Shown: piece after piece, positions 546 through 48,631 of the stretch | Layout: every line of letters starts with the position of its first letter | Position numbering within the stretch: the first letter of the stretch is position 1 | DNA from: Escherichia phage ECO07P2 | Sequence record: OP172785 | DNA length: 64,000 nucleotides | Reading direction: 5' to 3' (one strand) | Program-made: the position numbers and the translations under genes | The notes under the pieces: generated by a model | Database searches by the model: none | Seen by the model: the letters and a program-made list of their open reading frames with translations, nothing else | Told to the model about the DNA's origin: nothing

Positions 546-2314
546 AAAAGCCACAAGAAATGCAAACGATGCGTAGAAAAGTTATTTCAGATAATAAACC
601 AACACAGGAAGCGGCTAAATCCGCTTCTAACACTTTATCTGGACTTAACGATATATCTACGAAATTGGATGATGCTCAAGCTGCGTCTGAATTAATTGCT
701 CAAACTGTCGAAGAAAAATCGAATGAAATAATTGGAGCAATTGACAACGTAGAAAGCGCAGTGAGTGATACTACTGCCGGTTCTGAGTTAATTGCTGAAA
801 CTGTCGAAATTGGCAATAATATTAATAAAGAAATCGGTGAATCGCTCGGGAGCAAATTAGATAAATTAACAAGTTTACTGGAGCAAAAAATTCAGACAGC
901 TGGAATTCAACAAACAGGAACTAGTTTAGCCACGGTTGAAAGCGCTATTCCTGTTAAAGTTGTTGAGGACGATACAGCTGAATCTGTGGGTCCTTTATTA
1001 CCAGCTCCTGAAGCAGTTAATAATGATCCTGATGCTGATTTTTTCCCTACCCCTCAGCCAGTTGAACCTAAACAAGAATCGCCAGAAGAAAAACAGAAAA
1101 AAGACGCATTTAACTTAAAATTATCTCAAGCTTTAGATAAATTAACAAAGACTGTTGATTTCGGATTTAAGAAATCTATTTCAATTACTGATAAAATATC
1201 AAGCATGCTATTTAAGTATACCGTCAGTGCTGCTATTGAAGCTGCTAAAATGACAGCAATGATATTGGCTGTTGTTGTCGGAATAGACCTGTTGATGGTT
1301 CATTTCAAATATTGGTCAGATAAATTTTCGCAGGCATGGGATTTATTTAGTACAGACTTTACTAAATTCTCTAGTGAAACAGGAACATGGGGTCCTTTAT
1401 TACAGAGCATCTTTAGTTCTATTGATGAAATTAAAAAATTCTGGGAAGAGGGAGATTGGGGCGGTTTGACGGTAGCTATTGTAGAAGGGCTTGGAAAGGT
1501 TCTTTATAATTTAGGAGAACTTATTCAGCTTGGAATGGCTAAATTATCTGCTGCAATTCTTCGAGTCATTCCTGGCATGAAGGATACCGCTGATGAAGTA
1601 GAAGGAAGAGCACTAGAAAATTTCCAAAATTCTACTGGAGCATCTCTCAATAAAGAAGACCAGGAAAAAGTTGCAAATTATCAAGATAAACGAATGAACG
1701 GAGACCTTGGTCCGATAGCAAAAGGATTAGATAAAATTGCTAATTGGAAAACTCGTGCATCTAACTGGATTCGTGGCGTTGATAATAAAGAAGCACTAAC
1801 TACCGACGAAGAGCGTGCAGCAGAAGAAGAAAAATTAAAGCAACTTTCACCAGAAGAAAGAAAAAATGCTTTAATGAAGGCTAATGAAGCTCGTGCCGCG
1901 ATGATTCGTTTTGAAAAATATGCTGATTCAGCTGATATGAGTAAAGACTCAACTGTTAAATCAGTTGAAGCTGCCTATGAAGACCTTAAAAAACGGATGG
2001 ATGACCCGGATTTAAATAATTCACCGGCAGTTAAAAAAGAACTTGCTGCTAGATTTTCTAAAATTGATGCTACTTATCAAGAGCTCAAGAAAAATCAGCC
2101 TAATGCCAAACCTGAAACTTCTGCTAAATCACCGGAAGCGAAACAGGTTCAGGTGATTGAAAAGAACAAAGCACAGCAAGCTCCTGTTCAACAAGCATCT
2201 CCTTCAATCAATAATACTAATAATGTTATTAAGAAAAATACTGTCGTTCATAATATGACACCCGTAACGAGTACGACTGCTCCTGGTGTATTTGATGCGA
2301 CTGGAGTTAATTAA
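542..2314 (+). CDS. 29: baseplate hub subunit / tail length determinator gp29
   Basis: 590 aa; length and position match T4 gp29; start overlaps gp28 stop (ATGA coupling). Confidence 0.8.
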   Translation: MKKPQEMQTMRRKVISDNKPTQEAAKSASNTLSGLNDISTKLDDAQAASELIAQTVEEKSNEIIGAIDNVESAVSDTTAGSELIAETVEIGNNINKEIGESLGSKLDKLTSLLEQKIQTAGIQQTGTSLATVESAIPVKVVEDDTAESVGPLLPAPEAVNNDPDADFFPTPQPVEPKQESPEEKQKKDAFNLKLSQALDKLTKTVDFGFKKSISITDKISSMLFKYTVSAAIEAAKMTAMILAVVVGIDLLMVHFKYWSDKFSQAWDLFSTDFTKFSSETGTWGPLLQSIFSSIDEIKKFWEEGDWGGLTVAIVEGLGKVLYNLGELIQLGMAKLSAAILRVIPGMKDTADEVEGRALENFQNSTGASLNKEDQEKVANYQDKRMNGDLGPIAKGLDKIANWKTRASNWIRGVDNKEALTTDEERAAEEEKLKQLSPEERKNALMKANEARAAMIRFEKYADSADMSKDSTVKSVEAAYEDLKKRMDDPDLNNSPAVKKELAARFSKIDATYQELKKNQPNAKPETSAKSPEAKQVQVIEKNKAQQAPVQQASPSINNTNNVIKKNTVVHNMTPVTSTTAPGVFDATGVN

Positions 2315-2322
2315 GGAATAAT

Positions 2323-3417
2323 ATGGCAATTGTTAAAGAAATAACTGCTGATTTAATTAAAAAATCCGGTGAGACAATTTCAGCCGGACAAAGCACTAAA
2401 TCAGAAGTAGGAATTAAAACATACACAGCCCAGTTTCCAACTGGGCGTGCTAGTGGTAATGACACTACAGGGGACTTCCAGGTAACAGATCTATATAAGA
2501 ATGGATTATTATTTACTGCATACAATATGTCATCTAGGGATTCTGGAAGTCTTAGATCGATGAGATCTAACTACTCTTCTTCATCTTCGAGTATTTTACG
2601 TACAGCCAGAAACACTATCAGTAATACAGTATCAAAACTGTCAAATGGATTAATATCAGATAATAATTCAGGAACAATAAGTAAAGCCCCTGTTGCAAAT
2701 ATTCTTTTACCAAGATCTAAATCCGATGTTGATACATCATCACATAGATTTAATGATGTTCAAGAAAGTCTTATCAGCAGAGGCGGAGGTACTGCTACTG
2801 GTGTGTTAAGTAATATTGCTTCAACTGCAGTATTTGGGGCACTGGAAAGTATAACACAGGGTATAATGGCTGATAATAATGAACAGATTTATACTACAGC
2901 CAGAAGTATGTATGGCGGTGCTGAGAATAGAACTAAAGTGTTTACATGGGATTTGACGCCACGTTCAACAGAAGATTTAATGGCTATTATTAATATCTAT
3001 CAATATTTTAACTATTTTTCTTATGGTGAAACGGGTAAATCTCAATATGCCGCTGAAATAAAGGGGTATTTAGATGATTGGTATCGTTCTACGTTAATTG
3101 AACCTTTATCTCCGGAAGACGCGGCTAAAAATAAAACACTATTTGAGAAAATGACATCGAGTTTAACTAACGTTCTAGTAGTTTCAAACCCGACAATTTG
3201 GATGGTGAAAAACTTTGGTGCAACATCTAAGTTTGATGGAAAAACGGAAATATTTGGCCCATGCCAAATACAGAGCATCAGATTTGATAAAACACCTAAC
3301 GGTAACTTTAACGGATTAGCTATTGCACCAAATCTCCCTAGTACATTTACTCTCGAGATTACTATGAGAGAAATTATTACGTTAAACCGTGCTTCTTTAT
3401 ATGCGGGGACTTTTTAA
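2323..3417 (+). CDS. 48: baseplate tail tube cap gp48
   Basis: 364 aa; position between 29 and 54; Ser-rich N-terminal region. Confidence 0.8.
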   Translation: MAIVKEITADLIKKSGETISAGQSTKSEVGIKTYTAQFPTGRASGNDTTGDFQVTDLYKNGLLFTAYNMSSRDSGSLRSMRSNYSSSSSSILRTARNTISNTVSKLSNGLISDNNSGTISKAPVANILLPRSKSDVDTSSHRFNDVQESLISRGGGTATGVLSNIASTAVFGALESITQGIMADNNEQIYTTARSMYGGAENRTKVFTWDLTPRSTEDLMAIINIYQYFNYFSYGETGKSQYAAEIKGYLDDWYRSTLIEPLSPEDAAKNKTLFEKMTSSLTNVLVVSNPTIWMVKNFGATSKFDGKTEIFGPCQIQSIRFDKTPNGNFNGLAIAPNLPSTFTLEITMREIITLNRASLYAGTF

Positions 3418-4382
3418 TGTATTCTTTAGAGGAATTTAATAATCAAGCAATAAACGCAGATTTTCAACGTAATAATATGTTTAGCTGCGTTTTTGCGACA
3501 ACTCCATCAACTAAAAGCTCTTCGTTGATAAGTTCAATTAGCAACTTTTCTTATAATAACTTGGGTCTAAATTCAGATTGGTTAGGATTAACCCAAGGCG
3601 ATATTAATCAGGGAATTACAACGTTAATTACTGCTGGAACACAAAAACTGACAAGAAAATCAGGAGTCAGTAAATATCTAATTGGTGCAATGAGTCAACG
3701 TACAGTTCAAAGTTTATTAGGCTCATTTACAGTTGGTACATATTTAATTGACTTCTTTAACATGGCATATAACTCATCTGGATTGATGATATACTCTGTA
3801 AAAATGCCAGAGAATAGATTATCTTATGAAACTGACTGGAACTATAATTCTCCTAATATTCGCATAACCGGGAGAGAATTAGACCCTTTGGTTATTTCAT
3901 TTAGAATGGATTCAGAGTCGTGTAATTATCGTGCAATGCAAGACTGGGTCAATGCTGTTCAAGACCCAGTAACTGGATTACGTGCTCTGCCGCAAGATGT
4001 CGAGGCGGATATCCAAGTTAATCTTCATTCTCGTAATGGATTGCCTCATACTGCGGTGATGTTCACCGGATGCATTCCAGTATCAGTGAGCGCTCCTGAG
4101 TTATCATATGATGGAGATAACCAAATAACTACATTTGATGTTACTTTTGCGTATAGAGTCATGCAGGCTGGAGCAGTTGATAGACAAGCTGCGCTTGAAT
4201 GGCTTGAATCTGCTGCTATAAATGGTATTCAAAGCTCTTCTGGAAATAATGGAGGTGTTACTGAACTATCTAGTTCGCTTTCACGACTTAGTAGATTAGG
4301 TGGAACTGCAGGAAGCATTTCAAACATTAATACTATGACAGGGATTGTCAATTCGCAGAGTAAAATATTAGGAGCAATATAA
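3417..4382 (+). CDS. 54: baseplate tail tube initiator gp54
   Basis: 321 aa; immediately follows gp48 with overlapping stop/start; followed by hairpin terminator. Confidence 0.8.
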   Translation: MYSLEEFNNQAINADFQRNNMFSCVFATTPSTKSSSLISSISNFSYNNLGLNSDWLGLTQGDINQGITTLITAGTQKLTRKSGVSKYLIGAMSQRTVQSLLGSFTVGTYLIDFFNMAYNSSGLMIYSVKMPENRLSYETDWNYNSPNIRITGRELDPLVISFRMDSESCNYRAMQDWVNAVQDPVTGLRALPQDVEADIQVNLHSRNGLPHTAVMFTGCIPVSVSAPELSYDGDNQITTFDVTFAYRVMQAGAVDRQAALEWLESAAINGIQSSSGNNGGVTELSSSLSRLSRLGGTAGSISNINTMTGIVNSQSKILGAI

Positions 4383-4386
4383 CAAT

Positions 4387-4414
4387 GGGGACCTTTCGGT
4401 CCCCATGTTTTTAT
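4387..4414 (+). terminator. rho-independent terminator after gene 54 (GGGGACC-TTTC-GGTCCCC hairpin plus T-run)
   Basis: perfect 7-bp stem with tetraloop followed by tgtttttattt. Confidence 0.6.
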
Positions 4415-4701
4415 TTACGGAATGAAATGAAAGCAGCAACTGAAGCAACTAAACTGTCTTCAATATAAACTTCAATTTTTACCGGAGCTTCTGACTCAAA
4501 TTTACCTGTTACCACACCCTGAAAAATACTTTCAGTCTGTTCTGGCTTTGAAAAATTTTCAGAAGGAAAAATTCCGAACTTTTTATCTGTTCCAAAAATT
4601 TTAATAAATTCATCGTAAACTGCTTCATTAAAAGCATTATCAACAGGAATAACGCCTTCAACTACAAGTTCTTGACCTAAAAAGCGCAAAGAAGATTTCA
4701 T
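4411..4701 (-). CDS. hypothetical protein (alt-adjacent small ORF)
   Basis: 96 aa ORF with SD-like aggaacacaaaATG; preceded by early promoter cassette at 4733-4762. Confidence 0.45.
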   Translation of the reverse strand: MKSSLRFLGQELVVEGVIPVDNAFNEAVYDEFIKIFGTDKKFGIFPSENFSKPEQTESIFQGVVTGKFESEAPVKIEVYIEDSLVASVAAFISFRK

Positions 4702-4732
4702 TTTGTGTTCCTCATGTTATGTCAGTAAGACT

Positions 4733-4762
4733 ACTATAACACAACATGAGGAACTTGTAAAC
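4733..4762 (-). promoter_or_regulatory. early-type sigma70 promoter (-35 GTTTAC, TGn-extended -10 TATAGT)
   Basis: revcomp reads GTTTAC-18nt-TGTTATAGT; flanked by 12-bp perfect inverted repeat 4707-4718/4743-4754; near-identical copy at 19622-19651. Confidence 0.55.
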
Positions 4763-6819
4763 TACATTTTGAACTTTTTAGACATTCCGTTAATGTTAAC
4801 CAAAGAAGCTAAGATTTGAGAAACTTCGTTTTCCTCTTCTTTTGATTCTTCTACAAGGAATTGATTAAATCCAGCCATTGGACGAACTTCACCAGTTTCC
4901 ATTAAATGGTCGCCATCATATACTGATTCTTCTAATTGTTCAGAAGGAGGAACGATTGTACCTTCGATTAGATACTTGTTATAAGCAGTTTCTTTCATAA
5001 AGTAAGTACTTACTTTATTAATCTTCAGTAAAATTCCACGTGGTAGAATAACTTCAGCTTCTGATGGAAATCCTGATAAATGACCTGGAACGATAACTTT
5101 GATTCGCTCAGCTCCTTTAATTACCATACCCACGCTAGTTTCAGCATCTTCATTAGCATATGTAGAATGACTACCCATATACATCAAATCTTCAGCATCA
5201 ACAGAACCTTCTCCTTCACCAGAAAATACTGCGCCGGAATCATCTAGAGCCATATAGTTTTTACCATGCTCACCGAAGATATTTGGTTTAAGCGATGTGG
5301 ATACGAAGTTCTTGAAATAGAACATTTTATTTTCAATGTTATGACGCAAAGTTTTAAAAGTAACTTCTTGTCCACGATAAAGCGTAGTTCCTGGAGGAAG
5401 AACTGAACCTTTAGCGAATGCAGAATCCATTGTCTCGATGTGTTTAATGGCTCGTTCCATGTATTCTTCACGGGTAGAATCTGGTTTACCCAAGAGGAAC
5501 GAGTTCATTTCAACATATGAATCTGCACAATAATCTTCAATTACATCAGACTCAGCCTGAGTTAATCCTTTTGGAGTTACTTCAGTACTTGCATATTCAT
5601 ATGCCTGGGCAGCAGATTCATTAATCAATTTATAAATGCCATTCATGACAAATTGAATAATAGCTACCTTTTCGTCTGGCGTGGCTTTAGAACCTTTAAC
5701 TAAATCATTGATAATTTTCTTAATAACATCAAAGCTATTAGAAATATTAATATCAGCAAGATCGCTTAAAATTTTATCAGTTTTATAATCAAAGAATTCT
5801 TTATTTTCTAAATATTCTTGAGAACCTTGATATGTTATATCGCTCTGCAACTTGATGGATGGATCACGTAAACGTGCATGGGCTAATGCAATATGATTTC
5901 GGAAGTTTTCTAGTTCATAATCGCTAGATTTAAAACGAGAAGCACTTCTCATACCACCGATAGCTCCTTTGCTGAAGTTTGAACCAATCTGAATAACGCC
6001 AGAGTTCATTGGTCCTTCTGCTTTATATACCGGAACTTTAGATTCAAACTCTTGATATTTCTTGGCAGCGAAGCTATCACCCTGAAGCGAAGCATCTACA
6101 GTAGAATATTGAGCTTGCGCTGCTAATCGACGACTAATTTTAGTTTTCTGAATAACAGCTTGATCCGTGCGCTTATCATTTTCTAAAGCAATAGAAGCAG
6201 CAACAGCAACAGCTTTAGGAACAGCATTACCTGTTTTAACATCTACATAAACATCACCAACCTTTGATTCAACTTTTGTGAATAACTCAGTTGAAATAGG
6301 AGGTACACCTGGAATGTCTTCTAAATTGGTATTTTTACGGTAAACCATAATATATGCATACTTTTTATCATAATCCCAGATTTCCTTTAAAAGAACATAT
6401 CGACCTGCTCCTTTAGTACGTACTAAACGGTCAGCAATAACTTGCATTTGACGAGCTGCGCCATTTGTTTTACTTTTTAGTACGCGGAATAGGCATGCGT
6501 CAATTTTATACTGTTTCATTGTTTGAAGAGCAGTATCAAAAACCGCATTAATAACACCAATTGGATTTCCACCCAAGTTTTTAAGTTTAACTAATGATAA
6601 TTTCTCATTAACACCTATCATTACGATATGCATCATTTTATCGCCTGGCTTAACGTTTTTATTTGTATCACCGCCAGAGGTGTATGTACAAAATCTAAAT
6701 CCAGGAAGCACACTTTCTTCACCGGCTTGAATAGCGAAAATTTGAGGTATTTTATGCTTAGGATTTAAGTTAACAACCGGCGCCGAAGCGCCGTCAAATA
6801 ATTCTGTAATAAGTTCCAT
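4762..6819 (-). CDS. Alt-family mono-ADP-ribosyltransferase, paralog A
   Basis: 685 aa; N-terminus MELITELFD shared with neighbouring paralog; C-terminal ART motifs LYRG, FVSTSL, EAEVILPRG (R-S-E type). Confidence 0.8.
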   Translation of the reverse strand: MELITELFDGASAPVVNLNPKHKIPQIFAIQAGEESVLPGFRFCTYTSGGDTNKNVKPGDKMMHIVMIGVNEKLSLVKLKNLGGNPIGVINAVFDTALQTMKQYKIDACLFRVLKSKTNGAARQMQVIADRLVRTKGAGRYVLLKEIWDYDKKYAYIMVYRKNTNLEDIPGVPPISTELFTKVESKVGDVYVDVKTGNAVPKAVAVAASIALENDKRTDQAVIQKTKISRRLAAQAQYSTVDASLQGDSFAAKKYQEFESKVPVYKAEGPMNSGVIQIGSNFSKGAIGGMRSASRFKSSDYELENFRNHIALAHARLRDPSIKLQSDITYQGSQEYLENKEFFDYKTDKILSDLADINISNSFDVIKKIINDLVKGSKATPDEKVAIIQFVMNGIYKLINESAAQAYEYASTEVTPKGLTQAESDVIEDYCADSYVEMNSFLLGKPDSTREEYMERAIKHIETMDSAFAKGSVLPPGTTLYRGQEVTFKTLRHNIENKMFYFKNFVSTSLKPNIFGEHGKNYMALDDSGAVFSGEGEGSVDAEDLMYMGSHSTYANEDAETSVGMVIKGAERIKVIVPGHLSGFPSEAEVILPRGILLKINKVSTYFMKETAYNKYLIEGTIVPPSEQLEESVYDGDHLMETGEVRPMAGFNQFLVEESKEEENEVSQILASLVNINGMSKKFKM

Positions 6820-6822
6820 GAT

Positions 6823-8880
6823 TTATCCTTGAACGAACTTGTAAGGCATGTTTGTAATATCTATGCAAGACGCAATAATTCCAAGAGATGATTCTACTTT
6901 TTGTTTAACATTTGATGAAACAAATGATGCAAAGTCAACTCTGTCTTCTATTTCAATATCACCTGTCATTGCAACTACTTCACCAGTTTCCATTAGACGG
7001 TCACCGTCATAAATTACCGATTCGGTGAGTTCTTCCGTAGTCATAACTTCAGCTTGAATAAGCTTGTTGTTAGTTTTAACTGTTCCATCATTGTAAGATG
7101 CATCGGTTATTTTATTAATTTTGACCATTAATCCACGTGGCAAAATGACTTCCATTTCATTTGAAGGCGCTAAACTTCCACCGGGTAAAACAACATTGAC
7201 TTTATCAGCTCCAGTAATAACCCATCCAATTCCAACTAAATTATCGCTAGAATTAACAAGCCCTTCATCATTTTTATCGATAGAAATGCTTAGACGCTTT
7301 TCATCTGGTAAAACACCCACAGCTGAATCAGTCATCCAAGTACCAAAAATGTTTGGATATAATGATGTTGATACAAAATTTCTAAAATAAAAAACTCGAT
7401 TTTTTACCAATGCTTCATATATTGAAGGTAACATTCGCTGTGAACGATATAAAGTAATACCTTTTGGCAATCGATCACCATTTTTAAAGGCTGAATCTAA
7501 ATTATCGATGGCTTGTTCTATTTCGGGTGCTGTCAAAATACTTGTACGCTCATCTGGATTATATAATCCCAAAAGAGCATTATTCATGTCTACATATCCT
7601 GAACCCACATATTCACGAATTCCGCGTTTTTGAGCCGGTGTGTATTTAGATGAATCTTTATTTTCGACTATAGAATGTAATGACCACCCAACGGTAAGAG
7701 CATATCCACGTAATTCTCTTCGAATAATCTTTGTTTTTATTGCATTCCAAGAATTTTGCACCAACTCATTCGCAGCATCTTGATTTAAATGCGAATGCTT
7801 GTTAATATTTCTTTCTAACCAAGCACTTTTATATTTTTCTAAAGTATCATCGACTATAGAAGCAATAGTTTCTAAAGTTTTTATTGAAGTAATAGATTCT
7901 TTTCGTAATCTTTCTAAAGCTTTATTTTTTATTTCTGCATTAACGTCAGATTCTTTATCTTCAGGAATTATAGAAGCTTCTCTGAATGCCATTCCAGCTG
8001 TAACACTATTAAGAGCATTCTCTAATGCAAATCCTGAAGTAGAAATAACAGTCAATTCGTTAGCATCAGAAATTAAAGGCGCGTCGGCGGGTTTATTTAA
8101 TTCTGCTGCTGAAGCCTCAAATTTTTGAAACATTGGTGTTTCAAATCTAGAAGATTCCAATGACTGACTTTGCGCAATTGCTCTACGGGAAATTTTAACT
8201 TTAACTATTACAGCTTGGTCAGAACGTTTATCGTTTTCTTGCGCAATAGATGCTGCAATTGCCTCATTTTTAGTTACTTGAACCCCAGTATCTTTATTGA
8301 TATAAACGTCGCCGACCTTCGATTCAACTTTAGTAAAGAGCTCGGTACTAATTTCCGGAACTCCTGGAATGTCTTCTAGTGATACATTTTTGCGATGTAT
8401 AAGAATATATGCATACTTTTTATCATAATCCCAGAGTTCCTTAAGAAGGACGTATCTGCCACCTGAACGACTACGGATAAGTCTATCAGCAATAACTTGA
8501 ATTTGTCGAGCTTGACCAGCAGTTTTAGACTTAAGAATACGAAGCATGCAGGCATCAATTTTATACTGACGCATCGTCCGCATTGCAACAGTAAAAACTG
8601 AATTGATGTAATTAATTGGGCTTGGACCGAGACCTTTTAATTTAGCAATTGAACCTTTAGCAGTTAATGTAAAAGGAACAATATGCATCATTTTATCGCC
8701 CATTTTTAAATCGCGATTAGTATCACCTCCAGATGTATAGGTACATAAACGAAAGCCTGGTTGTTCAATTGCATCATCAACATGAACTGAAAAAATTTGT
8801 GGTATTTTCTTCTTTGGATTTAAGTTTGTAATCGGAAGAGTAGTATCTTCGTCAAATAATTCTGTAATAAGTTCCATCAT
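6823..8880 (-). CDS. alt: Alt mono-ADP-ribosyltransferase (capsid-packaged internal protein), paralog B
   Basis: 685 aa; ART motifs LYRS, FVSTSL, NEMEVILPRG; late promoter TATAAATA 21 nt upstream. Confidence 0.85.
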   Translation of the reverse strand: MMELITELFDEDTTLPITNLNPKKKIPQIFSVHVDDAIEQPGFRLCTYTSGGDTNRDLKMGDKMMHIVPFTLTAKGSIAKLKGLGPSPINYINSVFTVAMRTMRQYKIDACMLRILKSKTAGQARQIQVIADRLIRSRSGGRYVLLKELWDYDKKYAYILIHRKNVSLEDIPGVPEISTELFTKVESKVGDVYINKDTGVQVTKNEAIAASIAQENDKRSDQAVIVKVKISRRAIAQSQSLESSRFETPMFQKFEASAAELNKPADAPLISDANELTVISTSGFALENALNSVTAGMAFREASIIPEDKESDVNAEIKNKALERLRKESITSIKTLETIASIVDDTLEKYKSAWLERNINKHSHLNQDAANELVQNSWNAIKTKIIRRELRGYALTVGWSLHSIVENKDSSKYTPAQKRGIREYVGSGYVDMNNALLGLYNPDERTSILTAPEIEQAIDNLDSAFKNGDRLPKGITLYRSQRMLPSIYEALVKNRVFYFRNFVSTSLYPNIFGTWMTDSAVGVLPDEKRLSISIDKNDEGLVNSSDNLVGIGWVITGADKVNVVLPGGSLAPSNEMEVILPRGLMVKINKITDASYNDGTVKTNNKLIQAEVMTTEELTESVIYDGDRLMETGEVVAMTGDIEIEDRVDFASFVSSNVKQKVESSLGIIASCIDITNMPYKFVQG

Positions 8881-16996: not shown

Positions 16997-18222
<1,226 letters not shown>

Positions 18223-19654: not shown

Positions 19655-21242
<1,588 letters not shown>

Positions 21243-21269: not shown

Positions 21270-22439
21270 TTAAAAATATTTTTTAAAACCCATCATAACT
21301 TTATCATCAACATCATTATCAATCTGTGCTACAAGGTAAGATGACAGTTCTACTTCTTGTGGCGCGGATTGAACATTATCAGAATTAAGATATTCACGAA
21401 TCCAAGGATACGGGTGTTTAACCGGAGCATCGGTAATTGGGCATGGAAGACCACACTGTTTCATACGAGATACAGTTAAGTAATCAATAAAGCTCCACAT
21501 GCTATTTGTATTTAATCCAGGAACATCGCCATCTTTAAATAAATGAACTGCCCAGTCTTTTTCTTGACGGTTAACTTCCATGAAAATATCAACTGCTTCT
21601 TGTTCACACTCTTGAGCAATTTTAACCCATTCATCGCCATCAGTGCCAAGTTGAAGTTGACGAATAATATATTGAGTGCCTTTAAGGTGAAGCTGTTCAT
21701 CACGAGCAATGAACTTCATAATCTTGGCATTACCTTCCATGATTTCCATGTTCTTATGGAAGTTAAAGGTACATGCGAAAGATACATAAAAACGAATAGC
21801 TTCCAACGCGTTGATTACATGGAGGCAAAGGTAAAGAGATTTCATTAGTGCTCGTTTAGTACATTCAACAACTTTGCCTAATTCGTCTTTACGAAATCCT
21901 TCTGATAAAATTCCTTCATAATCTTCAATCGCGTTTTGGTATTCACGAGTCTTAACTAGAACATCATCATAATAGCGACCAATGGACTCGGCACGTTTCA
22001 TGATAGCTTTATCTAATACAATCTCATCAAATACCTTTGATGGATCAGTATAAAGATTTCGCATGATATGGGTATATGAACGGCTGTGAATAGTTTCACT
22101 AAAAGTCCATGTAGCAACCCATGTATCAAGACTTGGGTCTGAAATTAACGACATAAGTACAGCAGACGGTGCACGACCCTGAATGCTATCTAGAAGTGAT
22201 TGATACTTCAAGTTATTAGTAAAAATATCTTGCTGATACTGAGGAAGCTTGTTAAATTGCGCAGCATCCATCATTAAGTTTACTTCTTCAGGACGCCAGA
22301 AAAATGATAATTGCTTTTCGGTTAAATCTTCAAAAACTTTATGGCGTTGAATATCATAACGCGCAATACCAAGACCTGAACCGAAGAACATGGGTTCTTT
22401 TAAAACATCGACTGGATTTGTATTAAAAACTGTAGACAT
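21270..22439 (-). CDS. nrdB: ribonucleotide reductase small subunit
   Basis: 389 aa continuous ORF (no intron). Confidence 0.9.
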   Translation of the reverse strand: MSTVFNTNPVDVLKEPMFFGSGLGIARYDIQRHKVFEDLTEKQLSFFWRPEEVNLMMDAAQFNKLPQYQQDIFTNNLKYQSLLDSIQGRAPSAVLMSLISDPSLDTWVATWTFSETIHSRSYTHIMRNLYTDPSKVFDEIVLDKAIMKRAESIGRYYDDVLVKTREYQNAIEDYEGILSEGFRKDELGKVVECTKRALMKSLYLCLHVINALEAIRFYVSFACTFNFHKNMEIMEGNAKIMKFIARDEQLHLKGTQYIIRQLQLGTDGDEWVKIAQECEQEAVDIFMEVNRQEKDWAVHLFKDGDVPGLNTNSMWSFIDYLTVSRMKQCGLPCPITDAPVKHPYPWIREYLNSDNVQSAPQEVELSSYLVAQIDNDVDDKVMMGFKKYF

Positions 22440-26131: not shown

Positions 26132-26992
26132 TTACACCGCCATCTTTCCTTTCAGGACACCGTGGGACTGATAATCTTTGAGAACGAAATCCCGTGCTGT
26201 CATATATTCCGTTAACCAATACATCTGAGTTTCAGTATCGCATTGACTGAATCCATTAGGCCAATTAATACTGAGTTTGCATAGATCCATAGGAGTTCTA
26301 TTTAATATCTCTTTGCATTGCTCAATATGGTTAGAATAAATGTGTGTATTACCACCCGAGAATACCAAATCGCCCGGAACTAGTTCACACATGTCAGCAA
26401 CAATATGTAAAAGAGCAGCATAACTCGCGATGTTAAATGGAAGACCGAGGAAAACATCTACCGAACGTTGATACCATTGGAGATCGAGGTATCCGTTACG
26501 CACATTAAACTGATAGAACATATGACAAGGTGGTAATGCCATCTGCTTGAGTTCAGCTGGATTCCATGCCGACACAATTTGACGTCTATCATTGGGAAAT
26601 GTTTTAATACGATTAACAACTTCTACAATTTGGTCTACACCACCAAAATCGCGCCATTGTTTTCCGTAAATTGGACCAAGTTCACCGCTATGATAACCTA
26701 AGTCTTTAGCCTGGTTTTCGTAGTTTTCATCCCAAATTGTTTTTCCTGCAATTAAAGATCCATGAGTACGTTGACGTAAATCATTTACGTTAGTACTTCC
26801 TGATAAGAACCACAATAACTCAGAAATACATGCATTCCAGGCGAGCTTCTTAGTTGTTACTGCAGGAAAACCTTTAGTTAAATCCCAGCGTAATTTAGTA
26901 CCGAACAAAGCAATTGTTCCTGTGCCCGTTCGGTCATCGGTTTCATAACCGTTTTCAAAAATGTCTTTAATTAAATCTTGGTATTGTTTCAT
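26132..26992 (-). CDS. td: thymidylate synthase
   Basis: 286 aa continuous ORF (no intron). Confidence 0.95.
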   Translation of the reverse strand: MKQYQDLIKDIFENGYETDDRTGTGTIALFGTKLRWDLTKGFPAVTTKKLAWNACISELLWFLSGSTNVNDLRQRTHGSLIAGKTIWDENYENQAKDLGYHSGELGPIYGKQWRDFGGVDQIVEVVNRIKTFPNDRRQIVSAWNPAELKQMALPPCHMFYQFNVRNGYLDLQWYQRSVDVFLGLPFNIASYAALLHIVADMCELVPGDLVFSGGNTHIYSNHIEQCKEILNRTPMDLCKLSINWPNGFSQCDTETQMYWLTEYMTARDFVLKDYQSHGVLKGKMAV

Positions 26993-38318: not shown

Positions 38319-41300
38319 ATGGCTACTTTAAAACAAATACAATTTAAAAGAAGCAAAACCGCAGGTGCTCGTCCTGCTGCTTCAGTATTAGCCGAAGGTG
38401 AATTGGCTATAAACTTAAAAGATAGAACAATTTTTACTAAAGACGATTTAGGAAATATCATTGATCTGGGTTTTGCTAAAGGCGGGCAAGTTGATGGAAA
38501 TGTGACTATCAATGGTCTTTTGAAATTAAACGGCGATTATGTACAAACTGGTGGAATGACCGTAAATGGACCTATTGGTTCTACTGAAGGCATAACTGCA
38601 AAAGTTTTCAGATCTACACAAGGTTCATTTTATACAAGAGCCTCAAATGATACTTCCAATGCCCATCTTTGGTTTGAAAATGCCGATGGCATTGAACGAG
38701 GCGTTATATATGCTCGTCCTCAAACTACAACTGACGGTGAAATACGTCTTAGAGTTAGACAAGGAACCGGAAGCACTATTAATAGCGAATTCTATTTCCG
38801 TTCTATAAACGGCGGCGAATTTCAAGCCAACCGTATTTTAGCATCAGATTCGTTAGTAACTAAACGCATTGCGGTTGATACTGTTATTCACGATGCCAAA
38901 GCCTTTGGGCAATATGATTCTCAATCTTTGGTTAACTATGTTTATCCTGGAACCGGTGAAACAAACGGTATAAACTATCTTCGTAAAGTTCGCGCTAAAG
39001 CTGCCGGAACCATGTGGCATGAAATCTGTACAGCTCAGACTGGCCAAGCAGATGAAATGTCTTGGTGGACGGGTAATACTCCATCATCTAAACAATATGG
39101 TATTCGTAACGACGGCCGAATGGCTGGGCGTAATAGCCTTGCATTAGGTACATTCACTGCAGATTTCCCGTCTAGTGATTATGGTAACGTCGGTGTAATG
39201 GGCGATAAGTATCTTGTTCTCGGTGACACTGTAACTGGCTTGTCATACAAAAAAACTGGTGTATTTGATCTAGTTGGCGGTGGATATTCTGTTGCTTCTA
39301 TTACTCCTGATAGTTTCCGTAGTACTCGCAAAGGTTTATTTGGACGTTCAGAAGACCAAGGCGCTACATGGAACATGCCTGGAAACAACGCCGCGCTTTT
39401 ATCGGTTCAAACACAAGCTGATGGAAACACTGCTGGTGACGGTCAAACCCACATTGGATATAATTCTGGCGGTAAAATGAACCATTATTTCCGTGGTACA
39501 GGTCAGATGAATATCAATACCCAGCAAGGTACGGAAATTAACCCGGGTATTTTGAAATTAGTAACTGGCTCTAATAACGTACAATTTTATGCTGACGGCA
39601 CTATTTCTTCTATCCAACCTGTTAAATTAGACAACGAATTATTTTTAAATAATTCTAATAATACTGCGGGCATTAAATTTGGCGCCCCTAGCAAAGTTGA
39701 TGGCTCGAGAACTATCCAATGGAATGCCGGGACCCGTGCAGGACAAAATAAAAATTATCTGATTATGAAAGCTTGGGGTAATGCATTCGACTCCACTGCC
39801 GGTAATCGCGAAACTGTATTTGAATTATACGATGGTCAGGGCTATCATTTTTATTCTCAACGTTTAGCTCCAACGGGTTCTGAAACTGTCGGTGCTCTTC
39901 AATTTAGAATTTCCGGCGCTTTACGTGTGGGTGGTGGTATTATATCAGCTGGTTCTATTGTTAGTGAATCAAGTTTAGTTGCAAATAATGGATTGTCTAT
40001 AAACGGCCAAGCTAAATTCGGTGGAACTGCAGATGCATTGAGAATTTGGAATGCTGAATATGGTGCTATTTTCCGTCGTTCAGAAACAGCATTGCACATT
40101 ATTCCTACTCTTAAAGACCAAGGAGAAAATGGTGAAATAGGTAATCTTCGTCCATTGAGCATCGCACTTCATAACGGTATGGTGCAAATGCGTCATTCCG
40201 TCACGTTAGGTGATGATGGTGCAGGCGGTAATATGGTTACTGTTGATAATGATAGTAAACTTGTTGTTGTTACTAGTAATAGTCGCATTTCTCCTAATTA
40301 TAATATGCAATTAGGACAAAATGCTTATATAGATATTCAGGCTTCTGACGGCGTTCGTCCAGCAGGGTGTGGTTCATTTGCATCCCAGAATGACGTAAAC
40401 GTCAGAGCTCCAATTTATATGAATATAGAGCGTACTGCTACTTCTGAATACATTCCTATTATTAAACAACGGTATGTAAAGGGTGATAGCACTTATTCTA
40501 TTGGCACCTTAATTGCCCAAGGAGACTTCCGTGTCCATTATCACCAAGGTACTAGTACTACCGGAACCGATATAAGTTGGGAATTCCGTCGTACCGGTGA
40601 CTTCCGCTTACCTGGTAAAATTATTGTAGGCAACACAACTTTAGGAACTGATGGTAATATCACCGGTGGCTCTGGTAACTTTGCTAACTTAAACAGTACG
40701 ATTGAATCACTTAAAACTGATATTGTTTCAAGTTATCCTATTGGAGCTCCAATTCCATGGCCAACGGATACTCCTCCTGACGGTTACGCTATTATGGAAG
40801 GTCAGACTTTTGATAAGTCTGCATATCCTAAGCTCGCTATCGCATATCCTACAGGTACTATTCCTGATATGCGTGGACAAACTATCAAGGGTAAACCAAG
40901 TGGTCGTGCTGTTTTGAGCGCAGAAGCAGATGGTGTTAAGGCTCATAGTCATAGTGCAAGTGCATCAAGCACAGATTTAGGTACTAAAACCACATCAAGC
41001 TTTGACTATGGTACTAAGACGACAAGTAGTTTCGACTATGGTACTAAGACCAGTAATAATACTGGTGCTCATACGCATAGTTTGAGCGGTTCCACAAACA
41101 CCGCCGGTGCGCACAGCCACACAAGCGCTCTTTATGCGGGCGATAGAGACTCTCCTGGTGGTAGTTCTGCAAGAGGATCCGCCGGTGGTGGTAATACGCT
41201 TGGAACTTCTTCTTCTGGGGCACATTCGCACTCTATATCTGGTACTGCTGCAAGCGCAGGCGCTCACGCACATACTGTTGGTATTGGTGCTCATACCCAT

Positions 41301-45546: not shown

Positions 45547-45696
45547 TTACTGCATGACTGTGATAACTGTCATGATAACACGTTGAATGCCGAACGCAAG
45601 AAGACCTCCTGCTACAGCTGGAACAACACCTAAACCCGCTAGTAAAATGCTACCAGATACTAATGCCGCGCTTGTAATACCTATGAATGGACTCAT
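45547..45696 (-). CDS. small hydrophobic membrane micro-protein (not in ORF track)
   Basis: 49 aa MSPFIGITSAALVSGSILLAGLGVVPAVAGGLLAFGIQ...; strong SD GAGGAaatcaaATG; ATG overlaps gp52 stop. Confidence 0.45.
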   Translation of the reverse strand: MSPFIGITSAALVSGSILLAGLGVVPAVAGGLLAFGIQRVIMTVITVMQ

Positions 45697-47021
45697 TTGA
45701 TTTCCTCTAAATCTTTAGTGTATTCTGTAACTACATCAGTAGTTTTCCAATATTCGTTTTCTTCTTTTTTAGCTTTAGCTTCTTCAGCAAGTTTCTTTGC
45801 TTCGTCGGAAGTCATATGAAAAATGTTCATTCCAACTAGTTTATCAACATAAGAAGAATACATATCAATTTTAGAAAGTTCTTCAGTCAGTTCTTTGCGA
45901 GTTTTACATTGTACAACAATTTCACCTGAAATCACTTTCTTAATGAAATGTGCCTTGGCAAAGGCTAAACGAAATGCTGATTCAGTTTCTTTGATTTTGT
46001 TATCAATTCGCTTTTGGACATAAGTTTTACGAACTTCAACGAAGTCTTTAATTAAATCAACTACGTTATCGTAAACTTGTAGTTTTCCTTTCTCATTAAT
46101 AACGGTAATATTCTGGGAACGACGCTCAATCAACCCGAAGTCTTTCATGATTTTTGCATGGCGTTCTTCTTCGTTATCGCTCAAAGAGTATTCTTTGCGG
46201 AATTTAATTTTAAAGCCAAAACCATGCTCACCACAAGCATCATCCCATGTAATGAAGCCTTTATCTTCAAGCGGGTCTAAGATTTTACTCACATAAGTTT
46301 CACGATCATACTTATACGGAATCTCAGTGATATTCATTTGAATTCGTGAAGTAAACTTGTACGTTCCACGAATTTCATATTGACCGTCAATTTCAACGAC
46401 TTCACCACGAAATTCTGGGAATTCTACCTTCGGTTTAGTTACTTTCTTTCCTTGAAGAGCTTGTAGTACAGCTTTCTTGACAGAAGAAACACTATGAGGA
46501 AGAATGTAAGTTGCATAACCAGTTGCAATACCGGAAACACCATTAAGAAGAACAGTAGGAATAATAGGCAAATAGAAAGCAGGCGGAATGTGTTCTTTAT
46601 CTTGATGTACCGGAGCATATTCAGTATCTTTATATACGTTATAGAAATTTTTACTTACGCGAGCAAAAATATAACGACTTGCCGCTGCTTTTTGAACGGT
46701 ACGAGAACCAAAGTTTCCTTGACCATCTAACAAAGGAAAGTTATTATTCCAAGTATTAGCCATCAAAGCCCCCGCGTCTTGCGCAGAGTTTTCGCCATGA
46801 TGATATCCAAGGTCCGCTACACCGCCTGCAATAGAAGCGAGTTTGTGAAACTTATCTTTATTTCCTCGTGCCAAATCAAGAGCTCGAGCGATAACAAATC
46901 GTTGAACTGGCTTAAATCCATCAATCATATTTGGGATAGCACGATTTTCAACGGTGTACATCGCATATGCTAAGGCTTCGTTATCAATAATACTTTTTAA
47001 ATCGCGATTATTCAGTTGCAT
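45693..47021 (-). CDS. 52: DNA topoisomerase II medium subunit gp52
   Basis: 442 aa. Confidence 0.95.
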   Translation of the reverse strand: MQLNNRDLKSIIDNEALAYAMYTVENRAIPNMIDGFKPVQRFVIARALDLARGNKDKFHKLASIAGGVADLGYHHGENSAQDAGALMANTWNNNFPLLDGQGNFGSRTVQKAAASRYIFARVSKNFYNVYKDTEYAPVHQDKEHIPPAFYLPIIPTVLLNGVSGIATGYATYILPHSVSSVKKAVLQALQGKKVTKPKVEFPEFRGEVVEIDGQYEIRGTYKFTSRIQMNITEIPYKYDRETYVSKILDPLEDKGFITWDDACGEHGFGFKIKFRKEYSLSDNEEERHAKIMKDFGLIERRSQNITVINEKGKLQVYDNVVDLIKDFVEVRKTYVQKRIDNKIKETESAFRLAFAKAHFIKKVISGEIVVQCKTRKELTEELSKIDMYSSYVDKLVGMNIFHMTSDEAKKLAEEAKAKKEENEYWKTTDVVTEYTKDLEEIK

Positions 47022-47025
47022 AAAT

Positions 47026-47166
47026 TTACCATACTAGTGAATGTAGTGCCATAATAACATCAGAAATGAAAAGCACGACTTGAATTAATCCGAACATTAC
47101 TCCATAATATAGTGCTACCAATAAAGTAGCAAGGGCTACTGAGTAGCCCAAGATTTTCTTAATCAT
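47026..47166 (-). CDS. small membrane micro-protein (52.1 position; not in ORF track)
   Basis: 46 aa MIKKILGYSVALATLLVALYYGVMFGLIQVVLF... Confidence 0.4.
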   Translation of the reverse strand: MIKKILGYSVALATLLVALYYGVMFGLIQVVLFISDVIMALHSLVW

Positions 47167-47317
47167 TAGTAGATAACAACACAAATGTTAAATATGCACA
47201 CATACCCTGAGCTAAAGCTTGTGAAAACACGCTGCTGGCATCAATATAGATAGTTAAAACACATGCTACTATCCAACAAATAAATGAAATAACTCCTAAT
47301 AATTTTGCAATATTCAT
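47159..47317 (-). CDS. small membrane micro-protein, possibly Ac (acriflavine sensitivity) equivalent
   Basis: 52 aa MNIAKLLGVISFICWIVACVLTIYIDASS...; position between 52 and stp. Confidence 0.4.
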   Translation of the reverse strand: MNIAKLLGVISFICWIVACVLTIYIDASSVFSQALAQGMCAYLTFVLLSTND

Positions 47318-47324
47318 ATTTTCC

Positions 47325-47405
47325 TCACTGGCGTCCGAAGACGCCTTTAGTTTTAAGATTGTTACGATAGAACTGCATCACGTGTTCGTTATGGAAATTA
47401 CTCAT
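47325..47405 (-). CDS. stp: Stp peptide (activator of host PrrC anticodon nuclease)
   Basis: 26 aa [26 protein letters not shown], matching the T4 Stp peptide as I recall it; ATG overlaps ndd stop. Confidence 0.75.
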
Positions 47406-47863
47406 TAATACGCCTGCAAAACAAATTTAAAGTTATCAGCCAACATACGATTCATTTCTTCAAGTGTTTGATACTCAGAATGATGATTACGGGTAAACGC
47501 CAAAGCTAACTGACCTTTTCCAAACCCCGTCGTCAGAGGTTTCATCTTAGAAGCAGGTAGATAAAATACCGTGTATGGAACATTGTTATTTGCAATAGTA
47601 CGTGCAAGCTGAGACCGACGCTGACGAATATGACTTAGAACTGCACTGAATCCTTGCTTAGAACGCTGATTACCTACATAAAATCGTGCAGACACACATG
47701 GATTACTAAATAGACGACCATCTAATTTACTTACTAAAAAGTAAAATCCAGGTTTAGATAAAATATCTTTATGTGGAACTCCCAAAAACCATTCACCGTT
47801 CTTGATTGTACCAATAACGGTAGCGCCTGCATTGTTCAGATCAGTAACAGTCATATATTTCAT
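47405..47863 (-). CDS. ndd: nucleoid disruption protein Ndd
   Basis: 152 aa from [18 protein letters not shown]; track ORF extended 16 codons upstream. Confidence 0.8.
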
Positions 47864-48601: not shown

Positions 48602-48631
48602 ATAGTACCACAGAGGAACAGTCTTGTAAAC
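48602..48631 (-). promoter_or_regulatory. early-type promoter (GTTTAC -35, TGGTACTAT extended -10)
   Basis: minus-strand GTTTAC-18nt-TGGTACTAT. Confidence 0.55.

Follow-up and report, generated by a model that had tools for sequence, protein, structure and literature searches.

The stp locus and its expression signals

The DNA analysed here, referred to as the window, is a 64,000-nucleotide stretch of Escherichia phage ECO07P2 (OP172785). Between ndd and ac it contains a 26-codon reading frame that starts with ATG, ends with TGA, and corresponds to stp of phage T4. A first-pass annotation had reported a 26-residue ORF at this place. The ORF listing and translation confirmed its position and returned the same peptide; the strand, which had been left out, is minus. 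The elements of the locus are listed below, from upstream to downstream.

48602..48630, minus strand: candidate T4-type early promoter, GTTTACA - 17 nt - TGGTACTAT (consensus scan and direct reading)
47405..47863, minus strand: ndd, nucleoid disruption protein, 152 aa (PF06591, 312 bits; start MKYMTV preceded by GAGGAAA)
47325..47405, minus strand: stp, 26-codon ATG ORF and TGA stop
47330..47345, minus strand: hairpin GGCGUC-UUCG-GACGCC, C(UUCG)G tetraloop type (folding and terminator scan)
47159..47317, minus strand: ac, acridine resistance, small membrane protein, 52 aa (T4 ac position, PHROG 2501, direct reading)
47026..47166, minus strand: 52.1 homologue, small predicted membrane protein, 46 aa from an internal ATG (PF24129 DUF7396, T4 52.1 position)
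45693..47021, minus strand: gene 52, topoisomerase II medium subunit, 442 aa (ORF; length and position of T4 gene 52; so annotated in relatives)

The gene order ndd-stp-ac-52.1-52 is that of T4. The window Ndd shares 96% identity with its T4 counterpart, from which it also differs by a one-residue insertion, and the PF24129 DUF7396 match of the 52.1 homologue corresponds to residues 7-52 of a longer ORF that begins with TTG. At the ndd/stp junction the minus strand reads ...CAG GCG TAT TAATG AGT AAT..., and the stop codon of ndd (TAA, 47407..47405) and the start codon of stp (ATG, 47405..47403) have one base in common. An overlap between the ORF and the ndd stop had been proposed before and is indeed present, but it had been described as ATGA, whereas the minus-strand reading gives TAATG with a single shared base. 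At the other end of the gene, the Shine-Dalgarno sequence of ac (GAGG) overlaps the stop codon of stp.

The Shine-Dalgarno sequence of stp itself is weak, consisting of AGG 8 nt upstream, so translation of stp probably depends on coupling to ndd, for which the TAATG stop/start overlap would provide the junction. Upstream of stp, at a distance of about 1.2 kb, is the candidate early promoter, which precedes a series of small ORFs as well as ndd and stp; no obvious terminator was found between the promoter (48602..48630) and stp. Its position would fit delayed-early timing. Consistent with this arrangement, stp is probably transcribed within an early/delayed-early leftward operon, ...ndd.x-ndd-stp-ac-52.1-52.

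The frame had been called unannotated. This holds for the ORF track used in the first pass, from which stp is absent because of a 60-aa length cut-off, but not beyond it, since the T4 reference annotates the gene. In many GenBank records of relatives, the stp match carries nothing but an ndd or "hypothetical protein" entry, probably because of the same problem of size: a gene of 81 bases drops below common length cut-offs, such as that of the 60-aa track. The lesson for annotation is a practical one, as the gene overlooked in many deposited T4-like genomes encodes a known anti-restriction factor and abortive-infection trigger.

Identity with T4 Stp and conservation of the peptide

T4 stp occupies 165505..165585 of NC_000866 (T4p267/NP_049878.1) and is annotated as "activator of host PrrC lysyl-tRNA endonuclease". 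DNA alignment and translation showed that the window gene is identical to it at 81 of 81 bases and 26 of 26 residues. Alignment to T4 Stp had been suggested as a check on the identification, and no residue differs, including those needed for PrrC activation. The peptide matches PF08133 (Anticodon nuclease activator family; Nuclease_act) over profile positions 1-26 of 26 with 75.3 bits, where the gathering cut-off is 25 (E=2e-21), and it matches PHROG 6763, "activator of host PrrC lysyl-tRNA endonuclease", with E=4e-21. The profile score, the length (about 25-30 residues in the family), the conserved N-terminal 18 residues, the ndd/ac synteny, and the coding-type evolution described below all place it in the Stp family. 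The ORF is stp from a T4-like phage, a gene known and already annotated in T4, and its identification was correct.

The surroundings of the gene agree as well. T4 stp has the same neighbours, the same one-base TAATG overlap with ndd (T4 ndd, 165585..166040), ac 7 nt downstream, and the same strand logic, and it contains the CUUCGG hairpin as well. Within the gene there is no difference between the two phages, whereas the 77 bases upstream, which lie inside ndd, contain 4 substitutions; the window is therefore not from T4 itself. A 3-kb stretch around stp matches 744 phage records, the best of which (98.1% identical) is Escherichia phage ECO07P1, genus Tequatrovirus. Judged by these comparisons, the window comes from a Tequatrovirus close to T4.

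A frame of only 26 codons in AT-rich DNA calls for caution, because such ORFs are common (42 ORFs of at least 20 aa in 3 kb) and a strong hairpin fills the last six stp codons. The frame could be a chance ORF, conserved through a non-coding role of the ndd-ac junction, as a hairpin or coupling spacer, and not through its peptide. The distribution of the peptide and its codon differences argue against this. tblastn found it in 817 phage records, in 422 of them with at least 99% identity. Compared with the stp codons of the Kagunavirus K1ind2, a 42-kb siphovirus, 12 differences are synonymous and 2 change an amino acid; the corresponding numbers are 8 and 5 for Rtp, and 2 and 1 for RB68. Differences from the distant copies are thus dominated by synonymous changes, overwhelmingly so against K1ind2, the pattern expected from purifying selection on the Stp peptide in genomes without shared flanking genes. 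Moreover, the peptide is kept in siphoviruses that have no ndd, ac, or hairpin. Together with the Pfam match (E=2e-21) and the T4 match, this coding-type pattern lifts the stp ORF far beyond chance. T4 genetics points the same way: suppressor missense mutations map to the stp frame, and plasmid-expressed Stp suffices to elicit the nuclease (PMC3014915). We consider the chance-ORF explanation effectively refuted, with hardly any probability left to it, and treat stp as a protein-coding gene in what follows.

Copies of Stp in other phages were compared with the window peptide. T2-type Stp is identical at residues 1-11, and in T2 and TOPO13 the identity extends to residue 18; these copies match PF08133 but end in NFGILGFKK and lack the hairpin. 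Stp of the Gaprivervirus (VR7) type is also identical at residues 1-11 and matches PF08133, with the changes F12W, Y13H, and N15H; here the hairpin is kept, with a UUUG loop. Beyond Straboviridae, in siphoviruses with no relationship to T4, copies that all pass the PF08133 threshold occur in Drexlerviridae (Rtp and P818), in Kagunavirus (K1ind2), and in the Salmonella siphovirus STGO-35-1, at the following loci.

1444..2524 of locus L007: Rtp
2501..4956 of locus L010: P818
2501..2578 of locus L008: K1ind2
2501..2581 of locus L009: STGO-35-1

These siphovirus peptides (rtp6 in Rtp) have the core HNEH(V/I)MQ(F/W/L)YR(N/H)NLK in common with the window, score 35-67 bits against PF08133, and in most cases also carry a G-x-(F/L)-G-(K/R) tail. 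Their context differs from that of the T4-like gene, with neither ndd nor ac and no hairpin, and Rtp Stp has a 5-residue N-terminal extension.

Several observations accompany these copies. In Rtp, the distance between Stp and a 179-aa protein annotated "polynucleotide kinase" is 450 bp, and in P818 a 205-aa protein of the same name is 1.8 kb away from Stp; for both proteins, Pfam gave a match to the PNKP HAD phosphatase domain but none to a kinase domain. In a metagenomic siphovirus contig (L020, IMGVR_UViG_3300023038_000081, from position 226), the Stp frame continues into the downstream gene to give a 74-aa fusion; at the fusion point, relatives have a TGA stop that overlaps the next ATG. 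Either a sequencing error or a genuine fusion may lie behind it. A tblastn search of 72,556 plasmids gave one real Stp match, 96% identical, at 40360..40434 of CP088689.1. This record is a 44-kb E. coli "plasmid" that is non-mobilizable and comes from a blood isolate; judged by its size, it could be a Kagunavirus-like phage genome submitted as a plasmid. The search thus provided no indication that Stp is carried by conjugative plasmids.

A hairpin in the last six stp codons

Codons 21-26 of stp (GGC GUC UUC GGA CGC C) form a stem of six pairs with a UUCG loop. The hairpin ends 2 bases before the stp stop and 12 bases before the start codon of ac, and no other element of the region is present in both the MFE and the centroid folds. 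In plus-strand orientation a T-run, TTTAGTTTTA, follows the hairpin, and the terminator scan scored it as terminator-like in that direction. Hairpins of the C(UUCG)G type are a long-known feature of T4 mRNAs. Tuerk et al. reportedly described them there in 1988. A larger regulatory RNA around stp was considered and dropped: beyond the local hairpin, the 121 nt around the gene fold no better than shuffled sequence (z = -0.74).

Within a set of 18 IMG/VR contigs and the GenBank copies examined, the stem is kept in every copy with a GVFGR tail from a T4-size contig. Variants among Straboviridae copies are a C-to-U change giving GGUGUC with a G.U pair, or a change confined to the loop (UUUG), whereas no hairpin is present in T2 and TOPO13 with their GILG tail. 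That the GVFG(R/K) tail might be conserved purely as an effect of the RNA hairpin was considered and rejected. The copies from siphoviruses of about 44 kb encode GVFG(K) by GGA/GGG GTG TTT GGA AAA, codons for which pairing is impossible. Since these copies keep the residues without the pairing, the G-x-(F/L)-G-(K/R) tail is conserved as protein, with the hairpin laid over it in the T4 lineage.

It is conceivable, though we hold it doubtful, that the dispensable C-terminal tail of Stp is dual-coded in T4-like phages, with the unusually stable hairpin having a role at the RNA level. On the sense strand the hairpin could act as a barrier to 3'-exonucleases, as a processing boundary, or as a modulator of ac translation; on the opposite strand it could terminate antisense late transcription. 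Were dual coding true, codon choice in the Stp tail would be constrained independently of peptide function. As it stands, we regard the hairpin as a curiosity rather than a discovery.

Anti-restriction, tRNA repair and comparison with T4

Stp, PrrC, Pnkp, and Rnl1 make up one of the oldest worked-out circuits of phage defence and counter-defence. The two repair enzymes are encoded in the window by the following genes.

16997..17902, minus strand: pseT, polynucleotide 5'-kinase/3'-phosphatase, 301 aa from the second ATG (PF13671, residues 5-148; PF25109, residues 159-301)
19655..20779, minus strand: rnlA (gene 63), RNA ligase 1, 374 aa (PF09511, RNA_lig_T4_1; PF20819, T4_Rnl1_C)

The window PseT is 95% identical to T4 PseT and has the same length (301 aa), with a P-loop kinase domain (PF13671) and a PNKP HAD phosphatase domain (PF25109). 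In the alignment to T4, the P-loop GCPGSGKS (K15, S16), D35, R38, R126, and DVDGT (D165, D167) are all present, residues which we take to be essential from Shuman-laboratory mutagenesis. RNA ligase 1 is 99% identical to T4 Rnl1, again with the same length (374 aa), and it retains K99 in TKEDG (the KxDG lysine adenylylation motif), E159, E227, K240, and K242, which presumably are the residues found essential in published mutagenesis. The order pseT...alc-rnlA-denA-nrdB is the same as in T4, both domains of each protein are present, and the substitutions are only scattered; the ORFs of the pseT.1 region differ somewhat in size.

The coordinates given for both repair genes in the first-pass annotation were right, and so was its statement that all three phage-encoded components are in the window; by domains and catalytic residues, pseT and rnlA as well as stp are apparently intact. 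Its placing of stp "alongside" pseT and rnlA is true at the scale of the window but not as adjacency, for the repair genes lie 27-30 kb from stp, as they do in T4. The fourth component, the prr locus (EcoprrI hsdMSR and prrC), is host-encoded and lies outside any phage window, and the circuit is relevant in prr+ hosts alone. ARAGORN detected no tRNA genes in the whole window, and Rfam gave no matches at gathering thresholds, so the window adds neither a tRNA-Lys decoy nor a structured RNA family to the circuit.

In T4, Stp targets the type Ic restriction-modification complex EcoprrI, which keeps PrrC latent (Uzan & Miller 2010, PMC3014915; Blanga-Kanfi et al., PMC1484252). Besides relieving restriction by EcoprrI, Stp inhibits EcoR124I, whereas type Ia enzymes are not inhibited (PMC3014915, PMC1484252). 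Activation of PrrC requires GTP hydrolysis and an unmodified EcoprrI DNA substrate, with dTTP as co-activator, and the cut tRNA is healed and sealed by Pnkp and Rnl1; stp, pseT, and rnlA are all delayed-early genes (PMC3014915, PMC1484252). According to PMC3014915, which cites Penner et al. 1995, loss-of-function suppressors in T4 Stp cluster at residues 4-14, and activity resides in the N-terminal 18 residues. Loss of the last eight stp codons lowers both activities just moderately (PMC3014915, PMC1484252).

From its identity with the T4 peptide, the window Stp is predicted to inhibit type Ic enzymes and to activate latent PrrC. As extrapolated from the T4 literature, it would bind to the type Ic restriction-modification complex of the host (EcoprrI, EcoR124I) and block DNA restriction. 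In hosts with prrC inside that restriction-modification locus, the same event would unmask the latent PrrC anticodon nuclease, which would cut tRNA-Lys 5' of the wobble base; Pnkp and Rnl1 would then repair the cut tRNA. The first-pass annotation had presented Stp as the activator of PrrC, with pseT and rnlA repairing the damage. The identity of the peptide with that of T4 supports this description, but its emphasis needs to be shifted, as PrrC activation follows from type Ic inhibition. Under this analysis, the phage would keep stp for anti-restriction and not to trigger PrrC, and the most fitting description of Stp is that of an anti-restriction peptide which would be sensed by PrrC.

This shift of emphasis can be carried further, to a Stp that acts here purely as a type Ic anti-restriction peptide, with the PrrC and tRNA-repair circuit playing no part and pseT and rnlA kept for other reasons, such as the 3'-phosphatase in late gene expression, attachment of tail fibres by gp63, or repair after other tRNA nucleases. 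Stp does inhibit EcoR124I, a type Ic enzyme without an associated PrrC, and prr is optional and sporadically distributed (PMC3014915, PMC1484252). The Stp homologues of Kagunavirus and Drexlerviridae would also suit such a role, the "polynucleotide kinase" near Stp in Rtp and P818 being a HAD phosphatase match only. However, this proposal differs from the full circuit in emphasis and does not contradict it, because the T4 peptide does both jobs (PMC3014915), and all three phage genes are apparently intact in the window. We therefore regard it as very improbable that anti-restriction is the whole of the matter. The joint reading, to which we assign a probability of roughly 97%, is that of a Tequatrovirus stp that would be expressed from an early operon with coupling to ndd and would encode an anti-restriction peptide, whose action would unmask PrrC and be followed by tRNA repair.

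The literature search for a structure of Stp with EcoprrI or PrrC gave reviews and unrelated papers only.

Outside the stp circuit, the window departs from T4 at several places, listed below.

4762..6819 and 6823..8880, minus strand: tandem ADP-ribosyltransferase genes, 685 aa each (PF03496), 42% identical to each other
21270..22439, minus strand: nrdB, uninterrupted ORF, 389 aa
22475..23266, minus strand: D12-class N6-adenine DNA methyltransferase, 263 aa (PF02086, 85.7 bits), between nrdB and nrdA
26132..26992, minus strand: td, uninterrupted ORF, 286 aa
53636..55456, minus strand: single GyrB-like topoisomerase subunit, 606 aa (HATPase_c, DNA_gyraseB, TOPRIM_C)

In the nrdB/nrdA interval, T4 has nrdB.1 and the homing endonuclease gene mobE, whereas the window has the adenine methyltransferase. 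The insert is covered by 7 of the 594 phage records that match this stretch, and the methyltransferase gene is rare cargo at a site known as a hotspot of mobile elements. The td and nrdB ORFs are uninterrupted and Rfam found no group I intron anywhere in the window; the phage thus lacks the td/I-TevI and nrdB/I-TevIII introns of T4. Where the window has tandem ADP-ribosyltransferase genes, we take T4 to have a single alt gene (682 aa). Likewise, the single GyrB-like subunit stands in place of what we take to be the split genes 39 and 60 of T4, and the translational-bypass arrangement of gene 60 is presumably absent from this phage. At stp, the window repeats the textbook T4 arrangement.
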